Under the pieces are notes generated by a model. It worked only from the letters and a program-made list of their open reading frames with translations. It was not told the origin of the DNA and made no database searches. From IMG/VR virus record IMGVR_UViG_3300023179_000044, positions 1 to 64,000 of that record: 64,000 nucleotides of DNA; one strand, given 5' to 3'. Shown piece by piece: positions 35,378-53,648 of the stretch (its first letter is position 1; each line of letters begins with the position of its first letter). The stretch is from a virus. A program made the translations under genes and the position numbers.

Positions 35378-37417
35378 CTAGAAGTCAATTGAAGCAGAAG
35401 CTACGCCACCAAGCATGTCGCGTCCTAATGCATATGTACCATTGACCTTAATTGTCGATGTAACTGCAAGTGCTTCGATACCAACAAAGCCAACGCCCTC
35501 AAAGGTCTCAACGAACATCTTGTAGTCGTTGGTTCCAACTAGGCTGGAGTCACGGATGATACCTAGGTCCAGAGTTCCACCATCTAGGAACAAGAATGTT
35601 CCTTCGGCGAACAAGAACCACTTGAAACTGTCTGGGAACTGGTTAAGAGCACCACTAGAACCAGACTGAACAGTACCTAGCGAGCTAGTAAAGTTGGCAG
35701 CAGCAGTAGTCCAAGCGGTGTTGTCTAATGTTGAAACAACATCAACATTTAGAGATGCTAGATAGCCATCAATTTCTGACTGAGATACAGATAGATTTCC
35801 ATCACCAGGCATGTTCAGAGTCAAGTCTGCAGCCATAGCGTCGTAAACCCATACAGGAATGATAAGTTTCAATCTTGCATTAGGGTTCAAACGGTGACGT
35901 AGTCTATATGCAACTGCAGCACGACGAACGTTAACTAGGAAGTCACGGGCAACACCAATGACGCTGCTAGTGGTTACTGCAGTACAGTTAGAGTTGATAC
36001 CAGCAATTAGGTTCTCTTCTGCTCTACGAGCGTGCTGAACAAGAGCTAGTTCGTTGTGACGAGCAATCAACTCTGGGTAAGCACGAGTCATCAAGTTACC
36101 AAACTGTAGCTGTAGAGTTACAGCGTCGGTAGTTGCAGTCTTCTCGCTAGCTGCAGCGATGGTCATAGTTGCCTTTGAAGAAGGGCTAGGACTTGCTGCT
36201 GCGTCATTACTTGCTGTCCAAACATCAGCCGCTTTTGCATACGTTCCAGCATTTGAAACAGTAGTATCAGTAGTTGAAAGGTTTGCATAGGTAGGTGGAC
36301 TAATGAAACGGACACCACCGCGGTCAACCTGGAAGCGAGGCAAAGCATCGCGAATCGGGCGAACGTTGGTAGAGCCAATCGAGAAGATGTCATACTTTAC
36401 TTCGAATGGAGTAGAAAAACCACCAGCAGCAACAAGTGCTTCAGGGCCTGCTACAGCAGCAATCTTTTTTGCGTTTGACTCTGGATCGGCGTTGAGGATG
36501 CGCTCCTCAGGATATGAAGTGGTGAAGGATGCAACAATGTGCTGCTCTCCATCTCCACCATTTACACGACGAAGTGAGTGGAGGCGCTTCTCCATAGCAA
36601 CTGCTACTTCGCTCATGTCATTGATAGTTGAGCCAGCTGTGTATCCAGGAATGTCAGCTCCAGCGGTAATTGCTACCGGTGCTGGTTCTGAAACCTGAAC
36701 TACAGGCTGACGATCAGCTGGGGCCTCGAAAGGCTGTTCTGCTGCGGCGGTCACTGGGGCCTGCTCTTCCTGTGACTCTTCGGTCACGGTTGGGGTTGAT
36801 TCGGTTTGGGTTTCTTCGGTTGACAGTTCGGATCCATCTTCCTGAGCAATCGATGCGGTTTCAGTTGCTTCATTAGTTGTTGAAAGCTCTGCTTCTGGAG
36901 CAGCAACTTCCTCTACTACTTCTACAACTTCTGATGTGGTGGCTACTTCTTCAGAGTCAGAGCTGTATTCAGACATCTTCTTCTTTTCTTCCTCATCTTC
37001 AACTGGAGTTTCTTCAGCTGGAGTCTCCTCTACAGGAGTTTCCTCTGCTGGAACTTCTTCAGCCGGGACGGGTGCCTCTTCGGTTGGAGTTTCCTCTACA
37101 GGAACATCTTCTTCCATAGGCTTGTTTTCATCCATAGCCATTTCCTCTCCGGTACTTTCATCAGTACCCTTAACACGTGCGGTGGCTTCTGCAGCCTGAG
37201 CCGCTAGCTGTTCAGCTAGAGCCTCTCGGCGAGCTAGCTCACCACGCACAATGTCTAGCGAGTCTGCAAGACTCGTCATAGCATCAACTGTCTCAGGAGT
37301 AGGGTCTTCGCCTTCAACCTTGTCGAACTCGCTCATGATAGAGTTCTGAAGTTCAGCAACTTGTTCGTCGCTCATCTCCGATACTCCATCAAGCTGAGTT
37401 TTGATTTGGTCGTACAC
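35378..37417 (-). CDS. major capsid (hexamer-type) protein with fused N-terminal acidic scaffold
   Basis: GTG 37417 preceded by AGGAGG. Acidic helical and EETP-repeat N-terminal half, then ALVAAGG...RDALP..RGG...FGN...YPE...LDLGIIRDS...NDY..FVETFEG. Confidence 0.9.
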   Translation of the reverse strand: MYDQIKTQLDGVSEMSDEQVAELQNSIMSEFDKVEGEDPTPETVDAMTSLADSLDIVRGELARREALAEQLAAQAAEATARVKGTDESTGEEMAMDENKPMEEDVPVEETPTEEAPVPAEEVPAEETPVEETPAEETPVEDEEEKKKMSEYSSDSEEVATTSEVVEVVEEVAAPEAELSTTNEATETASIAQEDGSELSTEETQTESTPTVTEESQEEQAPVTAAAEQPFEAPADRQPVVQVSEPAPVAITAGADIPGYTAGSTINDMSEVAVAMEKRLHSLRRVNGGDGEQHIVASFTTSYPEERILNADPESNAKKIAAVAGPEALVAAGGFSTPFEVKYDIFSIGSTNVRPIRDALPRFQVDRGGVRFISPPTYANLSTTDTTVSNAGTYAKAADVWTASNDAAASPSPSSKATMTIAAASEKTATTDAVTLQLQFGNLMTRAYPELIARHNELALVQHARRAEENLIAGINSNCTAVTTSSVIGVARDFLVNVRRAAVAYRLRHRLNPNARLKLIIPVWVYDAMAADLTLNMPGDGNLSVSQSEIDGYLASLNVDVVSTLDNTAWTTAAANFTSSLGTVQSGSSGALNQFPDSFKWFLFAEGTFLFLDGGTLDLGIIRDSSLVGTNDYKMFVETFEGVGFVGIEALAVTSTIKVNGTYALGRDMLGGVASASIDF

Positions 37418-37513
37418 TGGACCTCCTAAGGTCAGTTTGGTTAGTGAATGTTTTACCATTCATGGTGAACAATCAAGGCCGAGGGACTCTGCAAAAGTTG
37501 CGAGGCGCTCTAC

Positions 37514-37530
37514 CTATTAGTAATTTTACC
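37514..37530 (-). promoter_or_regulatory. putative late promoter GGTAAAATTACTAATAG (capsid)
   Basis: 16/17 identical to 51105-51121. Contains a TAAAAT -10 element. Confidence 0.65.
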
Positions 37531-37537
37531 TTACTTT

Positions 37538-40500
37538 TTAGGTAAGGAGTCGGAGGAGCTTGCTCATCTCTGATTGGATTTCTCCTTGAGAATAAACATC
37601 TCCACCTGACATATAGGACTTTAGACTCTTTGTAGCAATGTCTGCATCCTCTTTACCGATCTTTGACTCGACTCTAGTGATCATTCCATCGATAAGATCC
37701 TTAAGTCCAGCTGGTAAATCGCTAAATCTTAGTTTGTCTGCCTCAACACCAAATGGTAGAGGGAGGTTTGATATAACTCGACCTAGTTCCCTAGCAGAGC
37801 TTTTAACATTTTCTAATGCCTGAGGATTTAAAGCTCCAGTATCTAATCTGTCAATAATACCTAAAAGCTCGGCACTAGCAGCAGCTGATTTTTCATAGTT
37901 CCCAGCAAAGTCTAGATTTTGTGCGGCTTCTGCTTGCTTTAAAGCCTCTTGTAGTCCAGCAACACCCAAATCCTGAGTTAATCTTGCAAGAACTTTACGA
38001 TACTTACCTTTAGCATCACGAGGTTGAGTTTTTGGAGTGTATTTAACTCTTCCTTGCTCGTCATACTTATCAGTTACGGTAGTCTTACCAGCTTTAATAT
38101 CTTCTGCTCTTTTAATTTCTTCTTCAGTTTGCTTTTCGGCTTCAGCCTTAGTTTCTTTTAATTCTTTTATATCTTCAGGAGAAATAAGATCAGGTTCAGC
38201 AAAAGTAGAAAGAGAAGCAATAACGGCTCTCATTCTTTCAATATTTTGAGAAGCTTGCATCGAGTGAGCATGCTTCCATTGATCTGGAATTAAATCAGCA
38301 GACTTAAGTTGACGAGCACGCTTCATTATATGGCGACGAACTACAGGACGATCTTCTTCTTTTGCACGACCAAATGCTTTAATGGCATTTTTTAAGTCAT
38401 CAGTATTACGAATTGGATATGATCCGTCTGGTAAAGCATGACCTTTTTTAGCTAAATCAGAACGTTCTTCTTCAGTAAACTTAGCTAATTCTGCAAGAGC
38501 AGATGCAACTATTGCTCTTTCACGTAGGTCTTCAACTTTTGCAGATGCAGCTATACTTTTTGACTTTTTCCATTCATCTGGAATAAGATTATACTTTCCT
38601 AGAGCTCGAGCACGCTTAATAATGTGCTTTTTAGCAGCAGCCACATCTTTTGCTCTACCATGAGCCTGAATTGCATTTTTAAGATCTTCGACATTTCGAA
38701 TAGGGAAAGAACCATCTTTCATGGCTTTTCCTTCTTTTGCAAGGCTATCTCTTTTTTCTCTAGAGATATATCCAAATTGAGTTTCAAATCTTGACATAAG
38801 ATCTGCAGAAGCAGCACTTAATTCATTAAGTTTGGAAGCTCTATCAACCAAACTTGAAACGTGCTGGCTCTTCATAATTGCAAAATAACTTGCACCAGCT
38901 GCAACCAAAGCCATAACTTTACCTGAAGCAAGCATTGCACGAGCAATAGGGAAGCCAGGAACATTCACCTGACATATAGCCACTAGTTCAAGAGAACCGT
39001 TAATTGGACGCCAGTCGCCAGAAGGAGCGGAAGCACGAAGTGCACGAATTTGCATTTCATTTGCATTAGGACGCAAAGAACCAGCTACCCAAATGCCATA
39101 TTCATCTTCTCCTGCGTGGACGTCTGCAATAGCCGATGCCGTATCATCATAATGTTTAGCTGCAGATACTGCATCTGCTTGGAGAGGAGCGTGGCCACCA
39201 GCCAATGTAAGCTGTCCAACTGGAATATCATTTCCATCAGCTGTTCTTACAACACCAGTATGAAAATAGGCATAGTTACTATTTGAACGAGGTGGTCTGG
39301 TTGAACGAGGCATACCGATGTGATTTACATGCCAAGCCGCAATATGCCCATATATTCTTCCGTTTGGCTCAACGGTAATCGGGGTTGGCTTAGTTAAAGC
39401 AGGATTAGTAAACCACTCGGTAGGAGGCGTCATTGGAATTTCTGCATCTAGAAATCCTGATGCTGTTAAAGCTTCAGCAGATACAAAAGAATCTAAAGAC
39501 TCTTCATATATTCCGTCTTCGGGGACCACTCTATCCTCCTGATTTTTAGTGGAATTGCTGTCAATAGAAATAGTGCATTCTTGAAATGCAGGCTTTGCTA
39601 CAATTGTAGCAGCCATTATACGTGCGTGATTTATAGTTAGTTTTTGCTTACCTAACTCATCTTCATTTGCATTTTCTGTTTTATGTTCTTTTGCTTCAAA
39701 TTGATCTAAATCCGCAGATACTCCACGAATAAACCCATTTTTAACTAATCTTTCGGCTTCACGACCATATGGTCCAGTATCAAATACCCCATAAGCATTT
39801 CCAATACCTTCAGGAGTTCTTTCCATGTAATCAATTCGACCAACAACTACAGAACCAGAGTGACCTTCAGCAGTTTTAATTTGCCAAAGAAGCGGGAGTG
39901 GAAGTTCTCTAATAGAAACTGCATCTTTTTTAAATTTTCTTCCGTCTCCAGATTCTATATCTTCTGGAATTAAAAGAGGAATAGAAAACTTTGCACCGTC
40001 AGTTTGAATAGATGCAGTAAGCCCTAAAATTCTTTCTTTTGCTGCATTTGCTGTAGCAATAAGATATGATTTTTCAATAATTTCATTGGTTATTGCATCA
40101 TTTACAGAAAAGAATTTTTTAAAACTATTTCCTCTACTACCTGAATTAAAACGACTTCCAGTGTAAACACCAGTCATTTCTTTATGACGAAGTTGACAAT
40201 ATCCCTTAGCACGGGGGCCAAGATACTTTGAGAGGTGACGAACACAGCGGGTCCAATCTCCAGGAACTCCCCACATAATTTTTGCTCCACCTACACCTCT
40301 AGTCCAGTAGTGCCTTAAATCTTCTGCATTTCCCCTATTTCTATCTAGACCCCCACCAGCAGTAAGAGCTTCATACTCTTTATCTCCACATTTTGCTAGC
40401 TCCTCTAGAGCATACTCAATCTCCATCTGAGGCTGCCAGTTAGATTCATATAATGGATCTTCTTCTTGCATAATTTCTTCATAGGACATAAGAAGATCTT

Positions 40501-40576
40501 CATTAGTGATATCAGTTGGATTTCCTATTTCCATCATGTATTCGTTATCTGCCACGGTTACGATCTCTCTTTGCAT
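37538..40576 (-). CDS. multidomain capsid maturation protease
   Basis: Directly upstream of the capsid gene. Domain 1: SGDGR...PLPL...GH...VVGRID...GVSAD...ATIV..PAF. Second protease-like domain: GRIYGH...HYDD...GIWVAG...SGDWR...VN.PGF. Two DGS(F/Y)PI repeats. The true start may be GTG 40555. Confidence 0.85.
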   Translation of the reverse strand: MQREIVTVADNEYMMEIGNPTDITNEDLLMSYEEIMQEEDPLYESNWQPQMEIEYALEELAKCGDKEYEALTAGGGLDRNRGNAEDLRHYWTRGVGGAKIMWGVPGDWTRCVRHLSKYLGPRAKGYCQLRHKEMTGVYTGSRFNSGSRGNSFKKFFSVNDAITNEIIEKSYLIATANAAKERILGLTASIQTDGAKFSIPLLIPEDIESGDGRKFKKDAVSIRELPLPLLWQIKTAEGHSGSVVVGRIDYMERTPEGIGNAYGVFDTGPYGREAERLVKNGFIRGVSADLDQFEAKEHKTENANEDELGKQKLTINHARIMAATIVAKPAFQECTISIDSNSTKNQEDRVVPEDGIYEESLDSFVSAEALTASGFLDAEIPMTPPTEWFTNPALTKPTPITVEPNGRIYGHIAAWHVNHIGMPRSTRPPRSNSNYAYFHTGVVRTADGNDIPVGQLTLAGGHAPLQADAVSAAKHYDDTASAIADVHAGEDEYGIWVAGSLRPNANEMQIRALRASAPSGDWRPINGSLELVAICQVNVPGFPIARAMLASGKVMALVAAGASYFAIMKSQHVSSLVDRASKLNELSAASADLMSRFETQFGYISREKRDSLAKEGKAMKDGSFPIRNVEDLKNAIQAHGRAKDVAAAKKHIIKRARALGKYNLIPDEWKKSKSIAASAKVEDLRERAIVASALAELAKFTEEERSDLAKKGHALPDGSYPIRNTDDLKNAIKAFGRAKEEDRPVVRRHIMKRARQLKSADLIPDQWKHAHSMQASQNIERMRAVIASLSTFAEPDLISPEDIKELKETKAEAEKQTEEEIKRAEDIKAGKTTVTDKYDEQGRVKYTPKTQPRDAKGKYRKVLARLTQDLGVAGLQEALKQAEAAQNLDFAGNYEKSAAASAELLGIIDRLDTGALNPQALENVKSSARELGRVISNLPLPFGVEADKLRFSDLPAGLKDLIDGMITRVESKIGKEDADIATKSLKSYMSGGDVYSQGEIQSEMSKLLRLLT

Positions 40577-42476
40577 GAGTTGCGGTATAAAAACCTAGGG
40601 CTTCTTTGTGCCTAAGTTGACAATATCCTTTTGCTCTAGGTCCAAGATATTTAGCTAAATGTCTAACACATCTCTTCCAGTCCCCAGGGAGTCCCCATTT
40701 AATCTTTAATGCACCTTCTCCGCGAGTCCAGTATCTGCGTAGCTTTTCTGCATTACCTCGATTTCTATCTAGTCCACCACCGGCAACCATAGTCGAGTAG
40801 TGGTCACCCCAGAAATTAATTAGATGCTGATATGTAGATGACATCGCTGCTTGAGGAGCACCCATTGGTGCTTGTGTCGGAGCTGGCATAGGGGCTGGCA
40901 TAGGTCCAGCTGGTGCCGCTGGAGCCGGATTCTGCTCTTTTGGCGGCTGAGTAGACTCATCTACTTGCTTAAGGATATCTTTAACAAGTTCTGGAGTATC
41001 TAGTTTAACTACAGGTGGAGGAGTAGCTGATTGCAAGTCTCTTAGAATTTGCTCATCTAAAACCCATTTTTGATCTTTACGCTTGTATGTGAGAGGTTGA
41101 TTAGTAGTTGCTGTTTTTGGAACAATTGCAACTACATCCATTACGGCCTGCGGATCATCTGGTGAAACAATAGCAATATATTTTGGCTCTACATCACTAG
41201 TTTTAGGTGTCATATCTTCAGCCGAAGCACCATCTGAAGTTAGAGCAACTTTTCCTCTAAATTTAGTAACTGCATTTGACCAATCAGTAAGCATCTGATC
41301 TAATTCATATTTAGTCATTGGACTAGGACCACTTGATAGTAAAGCTACAGGACCATCTTTTTCAACAACCGGCTGAGCTAAAATTCCTTTTGTATTGATA
41401 GGAGTAATTGGAGCAACAATTTTGTAAGATTTTTCTTCTGTAGAGTCATCTATTTTTTCAAATCCAGAAGCCTGAATGATTCTATCAATCATGCCCATGT
41501 CGAGATCTTCTATCGAGTCAGAAAACATCTGAGATTCGTCTGGATTAATATCATCAATTTGAATCATTTTAAAGGGAGATTCTTGCATGAGAGCTGAAAT
41601 AATAATTGCAGAGTCAGAATCAACTAAAACATGTGTTTTTTCAGTTTTATCATATGGATCATCTAGTCCTGAATCGTAAGTATAAATATCACCATCAATA
41701 TAACCAAGATCATCCCAAGAGCAGTCGTCCCATACATAAACGTGACCATCGATTTCTATTTTGTAAAGACGATCAATCCCAGAGCCATCTAATCTAACTC
41801 TTACTAAAAACTCAGGGCCATATGACGAATCTAAATTATGAGCTTCTTTAAAAGCATTTATATCTGACTCATAGTCATCTTCATAGTAGCTGTCAAGATG
41901 ATCTTCATATTCTGGATCCGTATATCCAGTTGAAGTCATTGCTCGTTTTTCACGCTCTACAATTGCAGAAGCCCAACGCCAAGCAGCGTCACCGCCCCAC
42001 AGTGCCCAGGCGATTCGTCCATTACTAGGGAAGTTATCTTCACCCAAATCCCATCCTTTACCCTTTTTGTCGACTTCATGACGAGGGAAATATTTAGCGA
42101 TATGGCGGACCTTTGCTAGACCGATTTGACCACCTTTAGCAAGTGTACGAGCAGTATTAAGCCCAACTGGAGTTCCGCCTCGGTGGTGCTCTTTGTGCCA
42201 CTTAAGGGCTTTAATTGCTTCGGATTTAACACCATCAGGAATAGTGTACATTCTGCTAGTAGATGCAACTACTGGATTTAGAGTGCTATCTAGTGTTACA
42301 GATGCAAGCTCATAGGCGGTTTCCGGAGTCTCTGAATTAAAAGTCCAACCACTTTTTTGAATATTAGAAAGTGCACCCATCTCAGTGACGATGTTAAGTT
42401 CAGTGTCAATAATTACACTGTAGTCGCCAATAGCAAAAAGCGATAACTTTCCTATACTTCCTAAATATTCAAGCAT
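40545..42476 (-). CDS. modular head-region protein (AWALWGGD module + C-terminal YWTRG module)
   Basis: GGTPVG..TA..LA...YFPRH...PSNGRIAWALWGGD module seen in phage head genes. C-terminus duplicated in the next gene. Confidence 0.75.
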   Translation of the reverse strand: MLEYLGSIGKLSLFAIGDYSVIIDTELNIVTEMGALSNIQKSGWTFNSETPETAYELASVTLDSTLNPVVASTSRMYTIPDGVKSEAIKALKWHKEHHRGGTPVGLNTARTLAKGGQIGLAKVRHIAKYFPRHEVDKKGKGWDLGEDNFPSNGRIAWALWGGDAAWRWASAIVEREKRAMTSTGYTDPEYEDHLDSYYEDDYESDINAFKEAHNLDSSYGPEFLVRVRLDGSGIDRLYKIEIDGHVYVWDDCSWDDLGYIDGDIYTYDSGLDDPYDKTEKTHVLVDSDSAIIISALMQESPFKMIQIDDINPDESQMFSDSIEDLDMGMIDRIIQASGFEKIDDSTEEKSYKIVAPITPINTKGILAQPVVEKDGPVALLSSGPSPMTKYELDQMLTDWSNAVTKFRGKVALTSDGASAEDMTPKTSDVEPKYIAIVSPDDPQAVMDVVAIVPKTATTNQPLTYKRKDQKWVLDEQILRDLQSATPPPVVKLDTPELVKDILKQVDESTQPPKEQNPAPAAPAGPMPAPMPAPTQAPMGAPQAAMSSTYQHLINFWGDHYSTMVAGGGLDRNRGNAEKLRRYWTRGEGALKIKWGLPGDWKRCVRHLAKYLGPRAKGYCQLRHKEALGFYTATHAKRDRNRGR

Positions 42477-42478
42477 TT

Positions 42479-42880
42479 TTACTCTCTAGCTGGATTACTA
42501 CCGAACAGAGTGTATTCTTCTAACCACTCTTCATTTAAAGTGCCATCAACGTATTTAACAAGAGCAAGTGACTTGTTATTTTCATCAAAAGCTTCGTCAT
42601 TTTTCCAATCAACTACATAATTTACATAGTCATTAAATAAATCATGAACGCGCCAAGAATAGTTTCCTGGAGCTAAAACCCACTGATCTTTTTCTTTATT
42701 GTAGTAAGAAATACCAAAAGCACCATCAGCTAAAATATCTACAACTTTTCTAGTTTTAGGGTCTAAAAATATATAAATTTTTCTACCCAGAGTAGTCTTT
42801 TTAGAGACAGATTCATTTTCTGGTAGTTGAACTTTATAGTCCTCTACTTTTGTATCTTTACTAACTGAACTATTTACCAT
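42479..42880 (-). CDS. hypothetical protein
   Basis: 133-aa ORF in operon context. Confidence 0.7.
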   Translation of the reverse strand: MVNSSVSKDTKVEDYKVQLPENESVSKKTTLGRKIYIFLDPKTRKVVDILADGAFGISYYNKEKDQWVLAPGNYSWRVHDLFNDYVNYVVDWKNDEAFDENNKSLALVKYVDGTLNEEWLEEYTLFGSNPARE

Positions 42881-42898
42881 AATATACTCTATTCTATT

Positions 42899-43261: not shown

Positions 43262-43269
43262 AGTATATC

Positions 43270-46200: not shown

Positions 46201-49200
46201 GTCTCTTAGGATATTTTCAAAACTTCCTGTCCGCTGAGCCTTAAATCCTCCACGAATTCCTCCGTAGTATCTTTCATTACGCATCTGATCCTTAGGTGTT
46301 TTTCCTTTAGGATTTGCTTTCCAGTCACGAAGGAAGTATTTTTCTAATAGAGCCTGAGGGCCACTAACACCTAGCAAACTTGTAAGACTCTTATGAGGAG
46401 CATAGTGATAGAAAGTTTCTGACATACCAGTGTTTAAATCAGTATAAGTTGCTACAACTCTAAAGTTATCATCCTGATTCTTTACAATACGAAGTTCAAA
46501 AAATGTTTTTTTACCAGCAAAATCTTTAGATGTTTTAGGCTCAGTAAAACTTAGTTCCCTGGCCCAAACTATGCTGCCATCTTGTTTAATAGTTGCATTA
46601 GGATTAATTGCTAACAATGCAGCAATAATATCTTCTCCTTTAGCAGTAGACACGCTAGCAAGGGCAGTTTTAGGAATACCGGATACATCAATTCCTTCTA
46701 CACGCTTTTTAGGATCGTCTTGTCTAGCTGGGTTATCAACCCAGAACCTAGACGGACCTCCAGGATGAGGAGTTGGAGTTATTACAGTAGAAGCATTCTT
46801 TGGCTTAGCGAATCTAGAAGAATTCTTAGATTGAATACTTCTTCCATTATTAAGTTTTTCTAATGCTGCAATTAAAGAAGAAACTCCACCCTTATTAGAC
46901 TGAACATCAGCTATAAAGTTAGGATCTTTAAATAGTTCTTCAATTACAGTATCGCCATCTGCACCTGAATCAATTAATTTAGCAATTTTTCCAGTAGGGT
47001 CATATTTAGATAGCTTAGACTTTGAAAGTTCTCTGTTATTTCTAACCCCGGCACTACGCTGTTGTCCAAAATTCTTAGCTAATTCGTCAATACTGTCATA
47101 TTTTTTAGATGGAACTGAAGAATCACTTCTATTACGAAGAAGTGCACTACCGTCTTTATTAACAGTTACTTCCCAGCGCACGCCATCAATTAACTTACTG
47201 TATTGCTGTCTACCTTTAGACCCAATTTGTTGCCAACCATCAAGGAAGTTTTTAGGCGGGGTAGTTGGACCAGAAACTCTTCCCTGAGAGATAAATGTTT
47301 CTTGATCATTTTGTTCAATAAATGGCTTTCCATTTCTTCCGGTAGATCCAAGAGACGAAGAAAGTTTTTCTGGTTTAGATCCTCCATCTTCTTCATTTCC
47401 AGGACCTCGAACTTCTTCGGCCATTTTATCTCTATAATCCCAGCCATCCATTCCGTAGTCCGCCGGGCGGTTATATTTAGTATTAAACTTCTCGAGGCCA
47501 TCTCGTCCAGAGTAATTCATTGCCCACTCAAGGCTACCTAAAAATAAACCTTTTTTAGCTCTAGTTGTAGAAACATAATGAATTCTTGTTTCTTCTTCAT
47601 CTAATGCTCTTTTAGCTATTTTTTTATCTTCAGAATTTGGATCAGCAAAATCATTACCGAGACTAACGTAATCCCACTCTAGACCTTTACCCCTATGCGC
47701 AGTACTAAGAGTTACATCAGCAATTACATCATTTGCTTCTAGTCTATTTGGAATGTAAGCAGCTATTGCATCTAATTCAGACTGACGATCATCATCATCA
47801 CGAGTTGAAAACTCCCAGTGTTGTTCTGTACCATTATATTTCCAGCCTCGATTTTTTAGGTAGTCTTTAAGCGGAGACCCATTTACATACTCTTTATATG
47901 TAGCTTCACCACTTAATGTTAGAACTCCAAAATCATCAACTTCATAATTTAATCCTCTACCAGCTTTAGATATCCATACGGTTCCAGATGACCCAATTGA
48001 AGCATCCAAATTAGAATCTACAGCACCTCCAGTATCAGACTTATCTACTAATAGATCCTCTATAACTTCACCAAGACGATCGTATCTTGTTTTACCTGTA
48101 TTATCTGCATATGTAGAAAATGTATACCAACGGCCAACTACAGATTTAGGATCTCTTTCTGCTCTTTTTTGAAACTCTTTTAAGGTTGTAATTCCTCTAA
48201 AATCAGAATCTTTTATGGGCTCTCCATTAGGCATTTGAGGGGTTTTAGTTCTATCTTTAAAATCTGCCCTAAGCCACTGTATATAGTAGTAATTATTAGT
48301 TAATTCTTTATAAAGCTGGCTTAAAGCCGCAACTTTTCTATTATCATCAATAAAACCAACAATAGCTTCGGCAGCAGCTAAATTAGTCCTAGTTAAGTGA
48401 GCTCTCTGTGGTCCAAATGGTAGTTCATCAATATCCCCTACAATTCCAGGGAAGTTAGAATCATCAACATTAGGATTTCCTACAAGACGCTTATTGTCTC
48501 CAAGTATATTTAGAAAAGCATTACCTGGTCCAGTTAAAGAATCAGGCATTCTATAGCTTGTAGTTAAGTTTACAACTGCACCAGCCGAGTTCTTTGCATC
48601 ATTTAATGCGTTAACTGCACCTCTCCAGGTAAAGATATTTTGATTTGTATCTCCAACGTGAGCGAGCTGAATATTTCCTTTATTATTTTTTAGAATATCA
48701 ACAACAGTCTCGTTTGTGTCCTGAGCTTCATCAATAATTACAAGTTTTGCTGGTAGTCTCTTCGTTCCAACTTTAATTTTAGATAAATCCGGATTACTAA
48801 GTTGCCAAAGTTTTAGCACATGGTCCTGGCTAATAGCTATTCTTCTATTACCAACAAATTTTTTCTTGTCTTTATCCCAGTAGCCAAGTTTAGGATTATC
48901 TTGACTAATGTCATCCCAGTATTTATTTGCCCAGCCAAGCCATTTATCAAAATCAATCTTGTACTTTTGACCGTCTCCTTCCATAAAATCTTCTGTAGGC
49001 ATGTCAAAAGCATCAGAAAATGCTTTAATTACGTTATCTTTTGATATCTCTCTACCAGGAGAATTACAGAAATTAGAAATGATTTTATCTACAAGAAAAG
49101 CTGCATCTTCACTATCAATATTTCTTCCAGGACCAGGAGTATCATCAGTACCTAAATGAAGAGCCAGATATTCTGGAGTATAGACAAGTTTAGAAAACTT

Positions 49201-51051
49201 TGGTGCTCTATTAATTTTTGTTGCAGCTTTTTGCTGAATAGTTAAAGATTTTCTAGCTAATTTGTGAGTTGTCATCGCATCTGAGTTATCACGTGGAAGC
49301 CTAGCTTTTGCATCAGCAGCATTTTTATTACCAAAAGTAAGTACTAATACACCATCATCTGGGCGTAGCCGACCCATGGCCCTAGCAATAGCTACCGATG
49401 TGGCAGTCTTTCCACAACCAGCTAATGCATCCATAACAGTATCTTGCTTAGCTAAAACAATCGCAGCAATTGCTCTTTTTTGTTCAGAGCTTGGTACAAA
49501 TCCTCCCGTATCTTGAGTAAAGTCCTGACCTGCCGCCAAAGCATCAAGTTCTTCGTTGCTCATCTTAGCTACTTCTTCAATAGCCTGTTTAACTTCTTCT
49601 ACAGTAGGTGGAGTTTCACCAGTAAGTTCTGGATCCTTCATTGGATCGCTTGTTGTTTCACTTGGAGGAATATTTAAATTCAAATCTCCGTCTTTTGCTG
49701 GAGGAGTGAATCCACCATCCCCCTCTGAAGTTTCTGGAGTCTGGATAGACGGAGTTTCTTCTTCTCCATCTTTAAAATCAACATCATCATCAGGAATATC
49801 TTCATATGAAGGACCGTAAGATCTTCCGCCTTTTCTACCCTTTGCTTTTTCAACAACTTCATCTACAGTTGGCGCGTTGCCATCCATCGCATCATCAATT
49901 GCTTCTTTAATGATGTCATCAGATGCTGGCTGAGATTCTTTATCTAATTTTGATGGTTCGTATTTTTCTGCCTCTGTAGTGTCAATAATTTCAGGTTCAG
50001 TAGTATCTGGAAGCGTGCCCGGCTCTTCATCGGTCAGTAGATTTTCAAAATATTCTTTATTTGGAATATCTTCTGTTGGAGACTCGGATCCATCTTTAAG
50101 TCCATCCATTACTTTAGAATTTAATAGTCTTCTAGCAGCTCTAAGTCTTTCAATTCTTTGTGTATCAGGATTTTCTTCAGCTTTTAAAGACTCAATTTTA
50201 TCTTTAAGAGCTTCATCTAATTTAAATATAGGAAACTTTGACTCAAGTTCTGATCTTAGTCGAGCAGCTTCCCCTTTTTTATTTTTTTCACCAGAAATTT
50301 TTCTATAGTTTGAATGTTCCTTACCAAAGTACTTCCAAGCATTACGATTAAAACTCTTTCGACCTGCCTCCCTAACAACATCCTCCACGCTCTGCTGTGG
50401 CTTCATTAGTGGTTCTTCTGGCTCTACTTGCTTAGATGGAACAACTTCTTCCGATGGCATGCTTTCGACTATGCGAGCAAGCTCTTCTTTTGACATCTTT
50501 CCTTCAGCACCAGGCTCAAGCTGAGCAAGAGGAGAGTTAGCTTTTTGCTCTTCAATTATTTGCTTTTCTTCATCTGTAGGAGTAGCATCAGCAAGTTCTA
50601 AGTCCTGAGGAGTAATTTCATCAATTAAAGTATTCTCATAGTCAAGAAAATCGTCCTGTGACCACTCTCTAGAAATAATAGGATTTCCCCTACTATCGAG
50701 TTTTTGACCTGGAGTAATGCCTTGACGCTTAAGAGCTTCTTCAGGAATAATACCTTCAATGGTTTCCATGGCATTTGTAGGAACGTGATAAACACCATCT
50801 CTAAAGCCTTTATCAGAAAAACCTTGAACTAAAATTCTAGCAAAACCCTTAATTTTATTAGAAGCTCCGATATACTTACCTCTAATAGGGATTGGTGGCA
50901 AACCATGCTTCAGCCTAGCTAGCATTAATTGTAGATGGCCCATTTCGGCCCACTGGCCGTGGCGATCACGAAGCTGGACCATCCAGAAACCCTTGTTAGC
51001 TCCTAAGCCAACTGCAATAATTACTTCTGGGTCTTTATTTTCTAATGACAT
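43270..51051 (-). CDS. 2,593-aa polyvalent protein: UvrD-like SF1 helicase + SH3-like modules + HExxH metallopeptidase
   Basis: ALAGCGKT, IIDEAQD, VGDTNQNIFTWRGA, LTTSYR, TRTN, STAHRGKGLEW, EETRIHYVSTTRAK; then AIHENTH...SEVMTMAFE. RBS AAGGA. Confidence 0.88.
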   Translation of the reverse strand: MSLENKDPEVIIAVGLGANKGFWMVQLRDRHGQWAEMGHLQLMLARLKHGLPPIPIRGKYIGASNKIKGFARILVQGFSDKGFRDGVYHVPTNAMETIEGIIPEEALKRQGITPGQKLDSRGNPIISREWSQDDFLDYENTLIDEITPQDLELADATPTDEEKQIIEEQKANSPLAQLEPGAEGKMSKEELARIVESMPSEEVVPSKQVEPEEPLMKPQQSVEDVVREAGRKSFNRNAWKYFGKEHSNYRKISGEKNKKGEAARLRSELESKFPIFKLDEALKDKIESLKAEENPDTQRIERLRAARRLLNSKVMDGLKDGSESPTEDIPNKEYFENLLTDEEPGTLPDTTEPEIIDTTEAEKYEPSKLDKESQPASDDIIKEAIDDAMDGNAPTVDEVVEKAKGRKGGRSYGPSYEDIPDDDVDFKDGEEETPSIQTPETSEGDGGFTPPAKDGDLNLNIPPSETTSDPMKDPELTGETPPTVEEVKQAIEEVAKMSNEELDALAAGQDFTQDTGGFVPSSEQKRAIAAIVLAKQDTVMDALAGCGKTATSVAIARAMGRLRPDDGVLVLTFGNKNAADAKARLPRDNSDAMTTHKLARKSLTIQQKAATKINRAPKFSKLVYTPEYLALHLGTDDTPGPGRNIDSEDAAFLVDKIISNFCNSPGREISKDNVIKAFSDAFDMPTEDFMEGDGQKYKIDFDKWLGWANKYWDDISQDNPKLGYWDKDKKKFVGNRRIAISQDHVLKLWQLSNPDLSKIKVGTKRLPAKLVIIDEAQDTNETVVDILKNNKGNIQLAHVGDTNQNIFTWRGAVNALNDAKNSAGAVVNLTTSYRMPDSLTGPGNAFLNILGDNKRLVGNPNVDDSNFPGIVGDIDELPFGPQRAHLTRTNLAAAEAIVGFIDDNRKVAALSQLYKELTNNYYYIQWLRADFKDRTKTPQMPNGEPIKDSDFRGITTLKEFQKRAERDPKSVVGRWYTFSTYADNTGKTRYDRLGEVIEDLLVDKSDTGGAVDSNLDASIGSSGTVWISKAGRGLNYEVDDFGVLTLSGEATYKEYVNGSPLKDYLKNRGWKYNGTEQHWEFSTRDDDDRQSELDAIAAYIPNRLEANDVIADVTLSTAHRGKGLEWDYVSLGNDFADPNSEDKKIAKRALDEEETRIHYVSTTRAKKGLFLGSLEWAMNYSGRDGLEKFNTKYNRPADYGMDGWDYRDKMAEEVRGPGNEEDGGSKPEKLSSSLGSTGRNGKPFIEQNDQETFISQGRVSGPTTPPKNFLDGWQQIGSKGRQQYSKLIDGVRWEVTVNKDGSALLRNRSDSSVPSKKYDSIDELAKNFGQQRSAGVRNNRELSKSKLSKYDPTGKIAKLIDSGADGDTVIEELFKDPNFIADVQSNKGGVSSLIAALEKLNNGRSIQSKNSSRFAKPKNASTVITPTPHPGGPSRFWVDNPARQDDPKKRVEGIDVSGIPKTALASVSTAKGEDIIAALLAINPNATIKQDGSIVWARELSFTEPKTSKDFAGKKTFFELRIVKNQDDNFRVVATYTDLNTGMSETFYHYAPHKSLTSLLGVSGPQALLEKYFLRDWKANPKGKTPKDQMRNERYYGGIRGGFKAQRTGSFENILRDPSSDDTSLSLRTPTEEALLILGGREQRLNKSKAKDTSQLYNQMRKGIPSFWDALDKGDKLAAVNALVSYVADLPDTQEARDVAKRVILETLRQKFAYLDEREFTDQFKEIVDFIENKVLDDAGIALAPHRLKSGEIAQVGMKVRWPNNIDPNGDAVGVIDHKLRVEHDAAGNFAYSNYVSVRFSDDPDEQPRVITTEKLIRVPDNTPLEKGRKTVRNDQLDVERALKNGDVVDFDKGLIFDKKAYDDNGDIVPIMKFNTDAIDFSYIDYNKYEDQIIGSPQKGTSTKASDISVGDTLYDPNGGRFGRVISKKSGTNKKTGSAVTKFTFDNGDSKTFNDTDEIISSSPLKAPEPSALTTLGKRAADIGIGMGSDGKTAKTLSIDTTQRTPIKDSSDTAVKPTEEARKAKDEVLAIGDELRKKIDQRTLENLQSQGISTSNAPDLDTFFNDLESNRVEKENEKVSAKNALDLERAKGMSKFKSVPSNLATISNANQKAIFDKMNAEGLIKNGPNGPEVDRDELKKRLDAAGLPYLATSVKTGVLGSNAIHFHAYDVMNDRAATAAYKTLQSKFKLAAKNHKDAQVSERRAIQTIGAAQRQGYIDTMNDEGIELDNVSLSEFNGLLFSEEKNLPVRPEDTFLSKVGFEEAISLLPSSMIRGLISRARNENKSIFIMSGVPRAFVSEDIKGFHIHLSNRPGMSQKGDGGTTATAIHENTHVIAELIPNMPQLQHAFIYDKGVQNAGTPEEMLPNVLRLAELLGPGYSDKEKALAIKGLASPYMSKVYERGITPESSHSEVMTMAFEDALSLPGIASRGKGLKAKIKDKDGKKKVIDVNYDPNTDTYTDSKGNPVDNIVQVFGRAKSDGVDNDVRNLAFGTLFALADRSGAVAKANSSVTTPKPSGSAQKAMQKGSIGSDNEGVISSIIDKFSGSDGTLSRSEYSQLINFLQNELEGEEASKYTEKELNSLRSYLSKITGL

Positions 51052-51104
51052 CTAGATTTGGGTCCTTCTTCTAGGAGCAAAATAATTGTTTTCTAGTATG
51101 ATTT

Positions 51105-51121
51105 CTACTAGTAATTTTACC
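51105..51121 (-). promoter_or_regulatory. putative late promoter GGTAAAATTACTAGTAG (giant helicase gene)
   Basis: Near-identical to the motif upstream of the capsid gene. Confidence 0.65.
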
Positions 51122-51147
51122 GTTATTTAGCTGGTATGATTTGGGAA

Positions 51148-51963
51148 TTATAGATTATCTAAATCTTTTATGGAATTTAAAGTACTTAGAAAAGTATTCC
51201 AATTTGCAATCTGAGCATACCTAGGGCTATCAACAAAATCTCTAGTTAAAAAATCATTAGAATCTTCTACCCAGTCAGGATGATCATTCAGTTCTTGTAG
51301 CACTTCGTTAGCACTAGCACCGCCATCAATCATTCGAGATAGCTGGCCAGATACATCATATTTAGCTAGTTTTTCTTTAGCTATTTCTTTAAAATCTACG
51401 GCCACTTCAGGGTCCTCCAATTTATTAAGAGAATCTATAAATTCATTTAGTTTAAATGCTGAAAGCCTATCTTCCATATCTGAGTCATCGCTCAATCCCC
51501 GAGATGCTTCAGAAAGACCATTATAAGCAGAAAGAGAATTTAAATATTCCATAATGCTATCTTTTGTATAGCCCTGATTAATTCTATATTCTAGCTCTCC
51601 ACTAGGATCTAGAAGATTACTTTCACCACTATTTAGACTAAATAAGTCAAGTTTAGACAAAAGATCAAGTCTAGACTTGTTATACGCATCCATAGCTACG
51701 TTTTTAAAGTTTTCTTCATTTCCAGTAGTTGCAGCATTATACATATCATCTGAAATAACACCAGCGGAAACTAACGCAGACAGACGAGTTTTTGTATGAG
51801 CATACTCAACGCTAGATGGATCGTAACGAAAAACTCTATAAATTAAATTAGATTCTCTAGGATCTAGTGACTCAAGTTCTGCTAATAGTTTTTCAGTGGC
51901 GGCTTTTCCATAAATATACTTAGATTTATTAAAAAACTCATCTTTAAATTCATTATCTGACAT
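51148..51963 (-). CDS. acidic helical protein with repeated D(P/V)SG module
   Basis: TAATG-coupled, RBS AAGGAG. Shares a ~40-aa module with the 2,593-aa protein. Confidence 0.75.
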   Translation of the reverse strand: MSDNEFKDEFFNKSKYIYGKAATEKLLAELESLDPRESNLIYRVFRYDPSSVEYAHTKTRLSALVSAGVISDDMYNAATTGNEENFKNVAMDAYNKSRLDLLSKLDLFSLNSGESNLLDPSGELEYRINQGYTKDSIMEYLNSLSAYNGLSEASRGLSDDSDMEDRLSAFKLNEFIDSLNKLEDPEVAVDFKEIAKEKLAKYDVSGQLSRMIDGGASANEVLQELNDHPDWVEDSNDFLTRDFVDSPRYAQIANWNTFLSTLNSIKDLDNL

Positions 51964-53210
51964 TAAATCTCCTTAGGAAGAAGGTCTGCATCCTGGCTAT
52001 CGTCAAGATAAACAGCCAAACGCTTTGCTCTGTTGAATGGATTTTCTCCCATTGTTTCAGCTCTGAGCCAAGCAGCCTTTAGTGCCGGAATAATCTCATA
52101 ACTAGCATCTGAATATTCAGCTAAAGCAAAGATTGCTTGTTCTTTATTAGTATACTCTGTTTCCGATAATAGTGTTACCGTCAACTCTCCAGAGTAGTCG
52201 TATTCATAAACTGTAGTTTGATCTTCAGGAGTTAAAGTAGGTTGATCTCCGGAAGCTCTAACTGATTTCTTTGATGATTTTGGATGTGATGGTGGAAGTA
52301 AATCATTATCAGTAGTGTATTTACTATTCTTTGGTGAACCAGATTTGAGCAAGTGTAAAAACGCATTTACACGAGCCATAGCCCATGAGTTGCGGTTTTG
52401 ATCTGGACGATGGGAAGAAGAAAAGGCTCCAGCACCACGGCGATAAACAGCTTTAACCATGGAAAGAGAAGCTTTTCTGTTTGACGTTTTATTAAATTCT
52501 TCTACTTTAGATTTTAAAGACTCTTCTACTTTTTTAGAAAAAGTAATTGACTTTGAGCCAGAAGCCGATCCTTCAGAATTTTTATCAGAACCTTTTATTT
52601 GGTCTTTTTTTGGAGCTGGTTTAGAGCCTGCAGTTGCAGTTACAGCTTCTTCTTTTTCTTTTGTAATTGGGCCCCCAACAACCCAGGCATTACAAGTTCT
52701 TGAAGCTGCACACTTAAAGTCAAATGCTTCACAGTAGCCAAGCTCAGCTGTATCTATAGCATCCCATGCATTCTGCTCACCAGAATCTCCAGCTGCTAAG
52801 CCACCTTCAATACAGTTAAGCATTTTTGGAGTACGAATAAACATAACACAGTTGCCGCAAACACTTTTTCTGGCTTCATCGCTAGATACATCCCATCTTT
52901 GAGCTTTAGACGCCCAGAAATCATCGTTAGGTTCTTTAGGATTTAAAGGTCCGTATTCAGCAGTTTTAATGGCTTTTTCTCTATTTGCAAGATTTATAGC
53001 AATATCTTGAGTAGCAGGGGGGCAATTATCATCGGATTCAACAGCCGCTGTTACAGGGGTTTTAACTTCAGTTTCTTGCTTTTTAGTAATATCAGAAAGT
53101 CTAATCCACTTACCATCTCTGTATACCTTCATCCCCTCAATATCAGACATACGTTCGCCGATAGAACTTCTTTTATCGTCGTTAGTTTTTTCAGTAATTT
53201 CTTCAGCCAT
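51963..53210 (-). CDS. modular head-region protein (Cys-rich HiPIP-like module + AVYRRG/WAMARVN module)
   Basis: Start moved to ATG 53210 (TATAAT 6 nt upstream). CPPATQD...CGNC..F...GYC...C....TC.AW and VKAVYRRGAGA...WAMARVNAFL. Confidence 0.75.
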   Translation of the reverse strand: MAEEITEKTNDDKRSSIGERMSDIEGMKVYRDGKWIRLSDITKKQETEVKTPVTAAVESDDNCPPATQDIAINLANREKAIKTAEYGPLNPKEPNDDFWASKAQRWDVSSDEARKSVCGNCVMFIRTPKMLNCIEGGLAAGDSGEQNAWDAIDTAELGYCEAFDFKCAASRTCNAWVVGGPITKEKEEAVTATAGSKPAPKKDQIKGSDKNSEGSASGSKSITFSKKVEESLKSKVEEFNKTSNRKASLSMVKAVYRRGAGAFSSSHRPDQNRNSWAMARVNAFLHLLKSGSPKNSKYTTDNDLLPPSHPKSSKKSVRASGDQPTLTPEDQTTVYEYDYSGELTVTLLSETEYTNKEQAIFALAEYSDASYEIIPALKAAWLRAETMGENPFNRAKRLAVYLDDSQDADLLPKEI

Positions 53211-53217
53211 TTTCTTA

Positions 53218-53435: not shown

Positions 53436-53648
53436 TTACCATCTATATCCGTCAGCTAAACTTTTATAGAAATTATCCTCTAATTCTATGTATTTATCTC
53501 CCGTGTAGTCTTCTACTTCAGAAGCAGCACCATTAAGAAGAACATTTTTATAAATAGGCATTTTAGTTTCAGTTATCCACAAATCGGGTGTAACTTCTCC
53601 TAGTAGTAGACCGGACTCATGTTTTTTAGTCATTTTTATTTTAATCAA
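53436..53648 (-). CDS. small acidic protein, candidate immunity protein
   Basis: ATGA overlap with the stop codon of the giant gene. Confidence 0.65.
   Translation of the reverse strand: MIKIKMTKKHESGLLLGEVTPDLWITETKMPIYKNVLLNGAASEVEDYTGDKYIELEDNFYKSLADGYRW

Follow-up and report, generated by a model that had tools for sequence, protein, structure and literature searches.

A short peptide tag, repeated at leader and module boundaries in actinophage head proteins, is kept in distant relatives

The head proteins of the actinophage IMGVR_UViG_3300023179_000044 carry a short recurrent tag at their leader and module borders, with the consensus (A/G/S/P)-(L/I/M/V)-(V/T/I/L)-A | (A/S/G, also D/T/C/V)-(G/A), and distant relatives keep it. 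The signal is head-specific, conserved as a residue class and located in linkers and leaders, and the genome encodes a gene with a domain of assemblin/gp21 fold. We consider it probable that the tag shows where a prohead protease encoded by the phage itself cuts, in a putative processing like that of herpesvirus pUL26 or of T4 and SPN3US; that the signal is cut, by which of two domains and in what order, we infer. The window analysed is a stretch of 64,000 nucleotides, supplemented by the whole 104-kb genome.

A head-specific peptide signal

A sequence-only reading of the window had proposed an assemblin-like cleavage code, (V/L/I/M)-x-A|(S/A/G), at domain boundaries of head-region proteins. 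Its 14 peptides were all found where it had placed them, in minus-strand open reading frames (ORFs): VTAA 236, ITAG 264 and LVAA 342 (residue positions) in the major capsid protein (MCP); LTAG 71, LTAS 186, LTAS 370 and LVAA 557 in the protease; VVAS 69, IQAS 334 and MVAG 563 in a 643-aa protein; VTAA 72, VTAT 209 and VRAS 336 in a 415/434-aa protein; and VIIAVG at residues 10-15 of a 2,593-aa protein. The list was selective, holding 13 of the 32 matches in four head proteins (18 in the protease and 7 in the MCP). The pattern caught a real signal but was, as written, both too loose and too narrow: about half of its matches are incidental and lie within folded conserved elements, P1' at homologous sites is also D, T, C or V, and AVTATA and VIIAVG fall outside its own P1' set.

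Enrichment is restricted to head proteins. Against per-protein shuffles, [VLIM]-x-A-[SAG] was only twofold enriched in the four head proteins (32 matches vs 16.1 expected), the protease alone having 18 vs 6.4 (reached by 0 of 300 shuffles), whereas 30 other proteins were not enriched (69 vs 66.0). A scoring matrix spanning P5-P3' was then trained solely on four sites in protease-family linkers and cross-validated on the three other head proteins and the 30 other proteins at a cut-off of 10 bits or more; the test head proteins gave 4 hits vs 0.16 in shuffles (maximum 1 in 100), and the other proteins 3 vs 1.46 expected. Genome-wide, its best match was EALVA|AGG in the capsid protein, at 20.6 bits. 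It also recovered the remaining listed sites, together with unlisted ones in the portal leader, at residue 26 of a 3,612-aa giant protein and at two junctions in the protease C-terminal half. Good matches outside head proteins, in a 605-aa protein (QALTA|GVP) and a 282-aa ORF at 96282-97130, count against the reading. A reverse-motif control gave 28 matches forward vs 14 reverse, and 6-7 vs 2 when matches had to be class-conserved within variable flanks. The family of the 415-aa protein, an independent set, showed a tenfold excess (1.92 vs 0.18 per protein). P1 is nearly always Ala (246 of 249).

Homologue alignments agree with the shuffle tests that this is a real, conserved short linear signal. 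Sites persist in the MCP, portal, protease and giant leaders of freshwater, Microbacterium, Arthrobacter, Gordonia and Mycobacterium phages, and aligned conservation extends to phages with <45% identity. They vary inside the motif class as their flanks drift (retention 0.84-1.0 vs flank identity 0.3-0.6), although these retention counts are not independent events because the homologues are related to one another. Where genes are split in relatives, every piece retains a short leader and a site, and swappable modules and inserted cassettes are bracketed by sites; leader sites lie 11-57 residues from N-termini. The sites are accompanied by another recurrent peptide, Q-x-R-D-x-x-G-x-aromatic. The proposed location at domain boundaries is supported for the junction of scaffold and capsid, for the low-confidence linkers that flank the protease domains and for the borders of swappable modules.

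Predicted sites in the head proteins

All features in this and the following section lie on the minus strand. The MCP (35378..37459, 693 aa; phrog_777 major head protein, E 1e-77) comprises a helical scaffold-like N-terminal domain (aa 13-97), an acidic disordered region (aa 99-270) and then the capsid core, as judged from AF2 secondary structure and pLDDT in a weak model (mean pLDDT 48.5). Site 1, APVTA|AAE (A238|A239; 36740..36757; 10.0 bits), lies within the disordered acidic region and is retained in 91% of 119 homologues, reading VTAS, MTAA or MAAS in Microbacterium, Arthrobacter, DSL-LC01 and Gordonia phages, where its surroundings are unalignable. Site 2, VAITA|GAD (A266|G267; 36656..36673; 12.7 bits), lies where the pLDDT<50 stretch 99-270 ends and is kept in all relatives but the Gordonia phages. 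Site 3, EALVA|AGG (A344|A345; 36422..36439), the top-scoring match of a matrix trained on another protein family, is the predicted mature N-terminus of the capsid protein. The form [AS]-[LI]-[VTI]-A-[AS]-G-[GW] is kept there in DSL-LC01, Big4, Pumpernickel, Atuin, GodonK, Sixama, Nicole72 and Qyrzula. The site is followed at about 22 aa by a conserved RP[IV][RK]D[AS]LP segment and at about 118 aa by the long helix 462-491. We take this to be the position at which HK97-type capsid proteins are cut, which counts for processing. Between sites 2 and 3, the 77 residues of segment 268-344 show strong conservation, an unusual property for a part to be discarded, and this counts against cleavage.

The protease-scaffold polyprotein (37538..40576, 1,012 aa; PHROG and Pfam matches) is ordered as a leader, a YWTRG module, protease domain 1, domain 2, two repeats and a C-terminal domain ending LLRLLT. 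Its gene is joined to the upstream gene in Big4 and Pumpernickel and is three separate genes in Gordonia phages. The four sites listed previously lie in or adjoin pLDDT<50 linkers, whereas several unlisted matches (320, 470, 486) fall in predicted strands or helices. Site 1, EALTA|GGG (A73|G74; 40352..40369), precedes the YWTRG module and adjoins a pLDDT<50 segment (model 15-20, or aa 74-79); its class occurs in 84% of 123 homologues (LVAA/LTAA/FVAA/LLAA/LIAA; flank identity 0.57), at an identical position in DSL, Big4, Pumpernickel and Atuin. Site 2, LGLTA|SIQ (A188|S189; 40007..40024), lies at the start of domain 1 within model segment 125-132 (pLDDT<50), the structural alignment with gp21 beginning at model residue 127 (aa 186), and is retained in 98% of homologues (LVAS/LTAG/LTAS/ITAG; flanks 0.52). 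Site 3, EALTA|SGF (A372|S373; 39455..39472), sits in the linker joining domains 1 and 2, within model segment 308-315 (pLDDT<50), and, with Cys admitted at P1', is found in 98% of homologues (LVAC/LTAS/ITAS/LVAS/LIAS); in Gordonia phages it appears as RALVA|GAAP, 20-22 aa past the start codon of a stand-alone domain-2 gene. Site 4, MALVA|AGA (A559|A560; 38894..38911; 19.5 bits), directly follows domain 2, reads LVAA in 125 of 126 homologues, Gordonia phages included, and appears analogous to a release site. Two sites had gone unlisted. Site 5, RAIVA|SAL (A691|S692; 38498..38515; 12.6 bits), follows repeat 1, its class being present in 66% of homologues (LVAS/LVAA/LIAA/LTAA; flanks 0.49). The weaker site 6, RAVIA|SLS (A787|S788; 38210..38227), follows repeat 2; its column-wise retention is only 0.26 because the alignment shifts, relatives having ALVA|SVE, PVVA|AGE or ITVA|APV a few columns off.

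The 643-aa head protein (40545..42476) repeats the YWTRG module at its C-terminus, aa 541-634 being 63% identical to protease aa 49-142; in Pumpernickel and Big4 it forms the N-terminal part of a single protein of 1,534-1,552 aa. NPVVA|STS (A71|S72; 42258..42275) precedes a conserved RMYTIPDGV module, and its class occurs in 75% of 73 homologues. Atuin has it as VTA|SG, whereas Big4 and Pumpernickel lack it. RIIQA|SGF (A336|S337; 41463..41480; 10.0 bits) is kept as a class in 89% of homologues (LTAA/ITAA/MTAA/VTAA) at a flank identity of only 0.30, and in most relatives an extra module, missing from the window, comes next. STMVA|GGG (A565|G566; 40776..40793; 11.7 bits), before the second YWTRG copy, is retained in 93%.

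The 415-aa modular protein (51963..53210; Pfam DUF5824), the form already on record, belongs to a 434-aa ORF that reaches 53267 from a GTG. It consists of a Cys-rich HiPIP-like module (the HiPIP annotation is found in relatives), DUF5824 and a C-terminal module, and its relatives bear extra Dps/ferritin, HiPIP-like or ParB-like cassettes. At TPVTA|AVE (A74|A75 in 434-aa ORF numbering; 53040..53057), nearly all homologues have [ILV]-x-A, with P1' mostly Asp (ITAD/LLAD/IVAD). EAVTA|TAG (A211|T212; 52629..52646) is retained in 86% (VTAT/LVAT/MTAT), and cassettes inserted here in relatives end in LV or VT just ahead of a conserved ATAGS. KSVRA|SGD (A338|S339; 52248..52265) has a column-wise retention of 27%; by eye, relatives show [LMI]-T-A|[SAT] displaced by alignment gaps, and in long members of the family a site of that form near the C-terminus reaches 14-17 bits and is taken to be the same junction.

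Two giant proteins show a different arrangement. The 2,593-aa helicase giant has a leader site, EVIIA|VGL (A13|V14; 51007..51024), that is weak in the window and is followed by GANKGFW..QLRDRHGQW. The matching N-terminal position is occupied by a canonical SALTA|AGG in Big4 gp74 (18.1 bits) and by PLVA|VGG in Pumpernickel gp82, each ahead of a shared Q-x-RD-x-x-G-x-W peptide. Over the 2,593 aa of the helicase giant, the matrix found no internal site above 6 bits. The ART/ParB polyvalent giant (53645..64000 in the window) is really 3,612 aa long by whole-genome ORF scan, starting beyond the window at genome position 64483. Its leader site, QGLVA|DAG (13.1 bits), is followed by GANEGFW..QIRDAKGRW, a layout that matches the helicase giant. 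Neither giant has strong internal sites, and since the sole site of each falls in the first 13-26 residues, a putative cut would most likely remove no more than a short leader from their N-termini. The suggestion that these genes encode polyproteins diced by the phage protease is thus supported in part, but not for the two giants.

Candidate enzyme and alternative readings

The assemblin-like protease fold claimed for this gene is present. Domain 1 (39521..39994; aa ~195-352) was assigned to the assemblin/gp21 fold by structural alignment, Foldseek and Pfam, and H239 and S287 (GVS) are invariant. With VIA-align its best structural match was T4 gp21 (5jbl; Z 10.8, rmsd 4.0, 123 aligned), with Z 9.7, 7.4 and 6.0 to the herpes proteases of VZV, HCMV and KSHV; herpes proteases were the top Foldseek matches. 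Its only sequence-family match, Pfam PF04586 (Peptidase_S78), scored 19.1 bits, under the cut-off of 21. The highly conserved domain 2 (38909..39424; aa ~385-556) was found by tblastn in 876 phage records and is called a capsid maturation protease in relatives, across which it co-occurs with the motif. A Pfam search gave no match for it, and a profile comparison found no similarity to domain 1; its AF2 confidence is low (pLDDT 40-70). Its language-model neighbours (0.92-0.94), useful as a lead only, were head-processing, Peptidase_S77/S80 and Mu-like_Pro clusters. No S78-like domain was detected in those Gordonia and cluster B Mycobacterium phages in which sites are kept, which qualifies the attribution of cutting to the prohead-fold protease; for that reason domain 2 may be the acting enzyme.

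The motif could instead be an uncut docking or hinge peptide, a short strand binding the protease, scaffold or shell interior, with real cleavage, if any, elsewhere. Conservation of the MCP residues that precede the best site (268-344) would fit such a role, as would the modelling of ALVAAG partly as helix ends, and the accompanying Q-x-R-D-x-x-G-x-aromatic peptide could be the true targeting element. Docking, however, has no need of placement exactly at module borders, cassette ends or so near N-termini, and the near-invariant P1 Ala with a small P1' is typical of the scissile bond in assemblin-type enzymes; we regard this explanation as unlikely. That an Actinomycetota host protease does the cutting is far less credible still. 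All known carriers do infect Actinomycetota, and domain comparisons could not pin down the acting phage domain, but the signal is limited to phage head-module proteins, co-occurs with a phage-encoded protease domain over five host genera, has two sites flanking that domain itself, and resembles neither lipoprotein boxes nor the signal peptidase I pattern with its small residue at -3. Equally hard to credit is an origin in chance and composition, by which Ala/Gly/Thr-rich linkers and amphipathic helices yield the loose pattern and border matches were picked. The background expectation and the selective list lend it some weight, and several matches are plainly structural (IMAA 320, LRAS 513, VHAG 486), but it is largely refuted by the matrix, reverse-motif and alignment tests, and the excess in the 415-aa family also stands against it.

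Relation to known systems and proposed processing

As with herpesvirus assemblin (pUL26/pUL26.5; MEROPS S21), a serine protease of the same fold heads a protease-scaffold polyprotein with a putative self-release site directly after the protease domain. The herpes R/M sites, such as YLQA-T and VQA-S in PrV, share P1 Ala, an aliphatic P3 and a small P1' with the sites predicted here (PMC4498786). Unlike assemblin, phage domain 1 is outside S21 by sequence, P2 is Val/Thr where assemblin sites have Gln/Lys/Asn, P2' is Gly/Ala, a second conserved domain is present, the capsid protein has its own fused scaffold part, and the putative substrates are many more, namely the capsid leader, portal, cargo giants and small modules. 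HK97 gp4/gp5 (Peptidase_S78, delta domain) likewise has the protease gene just upstream of the capsid gene and a helical N-terminal capsid scaffold part, putatively removed here too at the N-arm start, and S78 is the sole family matched; the differences are the sub-threshold S78 score, a leader of 344 aa that contains several internal sites and an extended acidic disordered region, and a protease embedded in a multi-module protein.

In T4 (gp21), phiKZ (gp175) and SPN3US (gp245), one protease trims the leaders of many head-internal or ejected proteins, enzyme cargo included, and in SPN3US the removal of N-terminal leaders from packaged head proteins is established (PMC10052503). Those enzymes recognize L/I-x-E or A-x-E motifs with P1 Glu in place of Ala, and the actinophages differ in being of siphovirus type, with an HK97-like fused scaffold and cargo encoded as very large polyvalent proteins. 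Iyer et al. 2017 described assemblin-like peptidases fused to polyvalent proteins and supposed processing during virion assembly (PMC5512222); giant multi-enzyme proteins (ParB-like, ART, DUF3626, UvrD helicase) are likewise encoded in the head module here, but that paper did not define a cleavage motif, and the giants in this genome show a leader site only, with no inter-domain sites.

In the processing that we propose, the assembling prohead would take up, in its shell or its interior, the portal and the capsid protein, whose N-terminal 344 residues are a fused scaffold-like part, together with the protease-scaffold polyprotein, the modular proteins of 643 and 415 aa and both enzyme-bearing giants. 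The protease would then cut after the Ala of the consensus. The capsid scaffold part would be removed by a final cut at A344|A345, with extra cuts at 238 and 266; the two protease domains would be freed from one another and from the scaffold-like tail, as at the herpes R site; the small modules would be separated; and short N-terminal leaders would be trimmed off the portal and the giants.

Recurrence of an Alanine-Directed Motif in the Head Proteins

The genome is that of a siphovirus-type actinophage of 103,878 bp with a low GC content (approximately 37%), and nearly all genes in the window lie on the minus strand, forming the head-tail module. Among named phages, the closest are DSL-LC01, an Actinomycetia phage known from a lake metagenome; Pumpernickel, Big4, and Cece of Microbacterium; Atuin of Arthrobacter; and GodonK, Sixama, and GMA2 of Gordonia. 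The cluster B phages of Mycobacterium, Qyrzula among them, are more distant, and metagenomic homologues number in the thousands. From the portal gene (phrog_776; genome positions 64945-66693, outside the window), the order is a 3,612-amino-acid (aa) giant protein, a 415-aa modular protein (51963-53210), a 271-aa protein, a 2,593-aa giant protein, two small proteins, a 643-aa protein (40545-42476), the 1,012-aa protease (37538-40576), and the 693-aa major capsid protein (MCP; 35378-37459).

A sequence-only reading had listed peptides of the form [VLIM]-x-A-[SAG] at domain boundaries of four of these proteins (MCP, protease, 643-aa, and 415-aa) as putative cleavage sites, with one variant (VIIAVG) in the 2,593-aa giant, and all of them are present in the translated proteins. 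The pattern occurs 32 times in the four head proteins against 16.1 expected from per-protein shuffles, and 69 times in 30 other proteins against 66.0 expected; the protease alone has 18 matches where 6.4 are expected. This amounts to a twofold raw enrichment, most of it contributed by the protease. Although the pattern is above chance in head proteins, it is loose, and the reading had cited 13 of its 32 matches.

A P5-P3' matrix was built solely from four sites of the protease family (P1 at A73, A188, A372, and A559; sites 1 to 4) in 126 homologues. Its consensus has A/G/S/P at P4, L/I/M/V at P3, V/T/I/L at P2, A at P1 (246/249), A/S/G with some C at P1', and G/A at P2'. When all other proteins were scanned, the top match in both the window and the whole genome was EALVA↓AGG of the MCP (20.6 bits; the arrow marks the predicted cut, and sites are named by the P1 alanine), and the top twelve also included MCP sites 266 and 238 and sites 565 and 336 of the 643-aa protein; RPLTA↓AAA at portal residue 57 was a further strong match genome-wide. 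The three test head proteins hold four matches of at least 10 bits (shuffle expectation 0.16, maximum 1 in 100) and the 30 other proteins hold three (expectation 1.46). The independent 415-aa family has on average 1.92 matches of at least 8 bits in each protein versus 0.18 when shuffled, and the reversed motif, which has equal composition, is half as frequent and seldom conserved as a class. Across the shuffles, the matrix, and the genome-wide scan, recurrence above chance is thus specific to head proteins.

Two matrix matches fall outside the head module: QALTA↓GVP (11.2 bits) at residue 460 of the gene at 14595-16412 of the window, and DSVTA↓SAF (12.4 bits) at residue 243 of the gene at genome positions 96282-97130.

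Position and Conservation of the Sites

The four protease sites lie in or adjoin linkers with pLDDT below 50 in an AlphaFold2 (AF2) model of residues 60-620, and the structural match to T4 gp21 starts at residue 186, precisely at site 2. These sites are kept in 84-100% of approximately 125 homologues, while their flanks are just 52-59% identical, and the residues shift within the class (LVAA, LTAA, LIAA, LTAS, ITAG, LVAC). Three loose matches in the protease that had gone unlisted (IMAA 320, VSAA 470, and VHAG 486) are located inside predicted strands or helices and are conserved in the manner of ordinary core residues. Site 336 of the 643-aa family is retained in 89% of homologues at a flank identity of 30%. 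Alignments of homologues therefore agree with the sequence-only reading, the class being held while the flanks diverge.

In the MCP, sites 238 and 266 fall in a disordered stretch (residues 99-270) of a full-length AF2 model that is too poor (pLDDT 48.5) to support a fold search but whose N-terminal helices at 13-97 are nonetheless confident. In the same model, a short helix ends at site 344, approximately 118 residues ahead of a long helix (462-491), and the conserved segment RP[IV][RK]D[AS]LP lies about 22 residues after the site; we take this to be the position of the cut in capsid proteins of the HK97 type. The form [AS]-[LI]-[VTI]-A-[AS]-G-[GW] of site 344 is universal, being present in DSL-LC01, Big4, Pumpernickel, Atuin, GodonK, Sixama, Nicole72, and Qyrzula, and site 238 persists as VTAS, MTAA, or MAAS within an acidic region that is otherwise unalignable. 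No solved structure related to the cores emerged when the MCP, the protease, and the Qyrzula MCP were searched by sequence against the PDB; the only match was to a C-terminal decoration-like domain.

The motif occurs at the junction of scaffold (delta domain) and capsid (MCP A344↓A345) and in N-terminal leaders, at residue 57 of the portal, where it is aligned across four divergent phages, and at residues 13 and 26 of the giants. The weak VIIA↓VG position of the 2,593-aa giant is a canonical SALTA↓AGG in Big4 and PLVA↓VGG in Pumpernickel. Gene boundaries in this region vary among relatives: Pumpernickel and Big4 encode the 643-aa and protease parts as a single protein of 1,534-1,552 aa, DSL-LC01 splits them differently, and the Gordonia phages have them as three genes. 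The split genes retain a short leader and a site, as in the stand-alone Gordonia gene for the second protease-gene domain, which begins M...RALVA↓GAAP.

Two Candidate Protease Domains

The protease gene has two conserved domains. Structural alignment of its model predicts a gp21/assemblin beta-barrel protease fold for domain 1 (residues approximately 195-352; aligned residues 186-344), which matches T4 gp21 (5jbl_A; Z 10.8, rmsd 4.0, 123 aligned residues) and the varicella-zoster virus (VZV) protease (1vzv_A; Z 9.7, rmsd 3.0, 113 aligned). Foldseek gave probabilities of up to 0.99 for herpes proteases, to which identity in the structural alignments is 11-14%. The assemblin-type fold that had been proposed for this gene is thus supported by the model. 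The candidate catalytic residues H239 and S287 are invariant across 53 sequences, and their GH and GVS contexts appear to us to resemble the His and Ser motifs of family S78. Domain 1 scores 19.1 bits against Pfam Peptidase_S78 (the HK97 gp4 family), below the curated cut-off of 21 and over profile positions 80-163 only; the Atuin homologue scores 17.2 bits, and a precomputed PF04586 match is present in one homologue. The gene has no Pfam S21 match at E ≤ 0.01 and falls outside MEROPS S21 as defined by sequence membership and a Ser-His-His triad.

Domain 2 (residues approximately 385-556; 38909-39424, minus strand) is the most widespread part of the gene, being found in 876 phage records, which label it capsid maturation protease, and in Gordonia phages a separate gene encodes it. 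It shows extreme conservation (GHIAAW, PPRS.S.YAYFHTG, GQLTLAGGHA, HYDDTAS, RASAPSGDWRP, and LELVA.CQVNVPGFP), and a Pfam search assigned it to no family. No structural match covers domain 2 because this part of the AF2 model is of low confidence, and the model is hence uninformative on its fold. Its language-model neighbors are head-processing, S77/S80, and Mu-like protease clusters, a relation that we treat as a lead only. Domain 2 was also considered as a detectable duplicate of domain 1, an idea that was dropped since profile-profile comparison found no similarity between them.

Either domain could be the cutter. Domain 1 is a candidate by its predicted fold and invariant His and Ser. Pfam S78 is undetected at E ≤ 1 in the genomes of GodonK, Sixama, and Qyrzula, although the sites are kept there; it is therefore domain 2 that tracks the motif, and domain 2 may be the acting enzyme. 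A very diverged S78 copy may remain in these three genomes.

Probable Processing, Putative Cargo, and the Extent of Dicing

T4, phiKZ/SPN3US, and herpesviruses are well-known cases of head maturation directed by a motif, so the process is not of a new kind. Processing by the prohead protease is the best explanation of the motif. The protease gene resembles herpes pUL26 in its order of protease, release-type site, and scaffold-like tail. The phage motif has the P3/P1/P1' pattern of the R and M sites of herpesviruses (YLQA-T, VQA-S; PMC4498786), and the breadth of predicted substrates is similar to that in T4 and SPN3US (PMC10052503). Polyvalent proteins with assemblin-like peptidases were noted previously, without a motif (PMC5512222). 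A literature search found no proteomic, N-terminal, or cleavage data for this phage lineage; the Rosebush supplementary tables give percentage coverage only.

Both giants lie between the portal and protease genes, beside head genes, and fit the pattern of polyvalent proteins, in which one polypeptide carries several unrelated enzymatic domains: ParB-like, Alt-like ADP-ribosyltransferase (ART), and DUF3626 domains in the 3,612-aa protein (3,436 aa within the window), and a UvrD helicase domain in the 2,593-aa protein. The start of the ART giant at 63955 in the window's ORF list is wrong; the actual start is at genome position 64483, and the first 176 residues carry the leader site, QGLVA↓DAG at residue 26 near the true N-terminus, and an N-terminal peptide common to both giants. 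This leader site is the sole match of at least 8 bits in the full protein. Internal maxima in its window portion are just 7.1 and 6.4 bits, and the helicase giant has no internal site above 6 bits, so internal dicing of the giants is rejected. The proposal that these genes encode polyproteins diced by the phage protease would accordingly be restricted, on sequence grounds, to the smaller modular proteins and the protease gene.

A YWTRG module (phrog_6439, approximately 94 aa, GGLDRNRGNAE.LR.YWTRG...GYCQLRHKE) occurs twice on the minus strand, one copy closing the 643-aa gene (40545-40870) and the other opening the protease gene (40150-40430); the copies share 63% identity, the overlap between the two genes is 32 nt, and fused-gene relatives have a single copy. 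The peptide Q-x-R-D-x-x-G-x-(F/W/Y) is found at approximately 50950-50990 and 38000-38030 of the window and at genome positions 64330-64400, outside it. It comes after the leader sites of both giants, there preceded by G-A-N-x-G-F-W, and as QPRDAKGKY it starts the C-terminal domain of the protease. In the 643-aa family it is part of a module that most relatives have following site 336, and it may serve as an address for capsid targeting. A conserved tail, ...MSKLLRLLT (37538-37600), closes the protease gene; it also terminates a separate 183-aa gene in DSL-LC01 and is possibly a capsid-binding end, by analogy with the C-terminus of the herpes scaffold protein. The 415-aa family (51963-53267) is a cassette system between conserved junction peptides. 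Relatives add a Dps/ferritin (PF00210), a second Cys-rich HiPIP-like, or a ParB-like module, these extra cassettes being flanked by motif sites; in DSL-LC01 the HiPIP-like part is a separate gene beside the protease genes.

A wider reading, which we regard as doubtful, is that herpesviruses share an assemblin-like cut after alanine with actinophage head proteases of a very large clade (domain 2 is present in at least 876 sequenced phages), and that this specificity is maybe ancestral to the protease-scaffold module. The motif and the neighboring G-A-N-x-G-F-W / Q-x-R-D-x-x-G-x-aromatic peptide would then form a readable address (load into the capsid, then trim), and domain 2 might be the enzyme and represent a type of protease that Pfam does not yet include. 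If such an address exists, enzyme cargo that is packaged and injected would be predictable from sequence alone.

If the sites are cut, the mature forms of capsid protein, portal, protease, and packaged cargo would be predictable from sequence for hundreds of SEA-PHAGES genomes, among them Mycobacterium cluster B, Gordonia, Microbacterium, and Arthrobacter phages, and for thousands of freshwater metagenomic phages. Cleavage would also point to a second, undescribed protease-like domain, establish a direct link in specificity between phage and herpesvirus capsid proteases, and reveal which giant enzyme-bearing proteins travel within the capsid.
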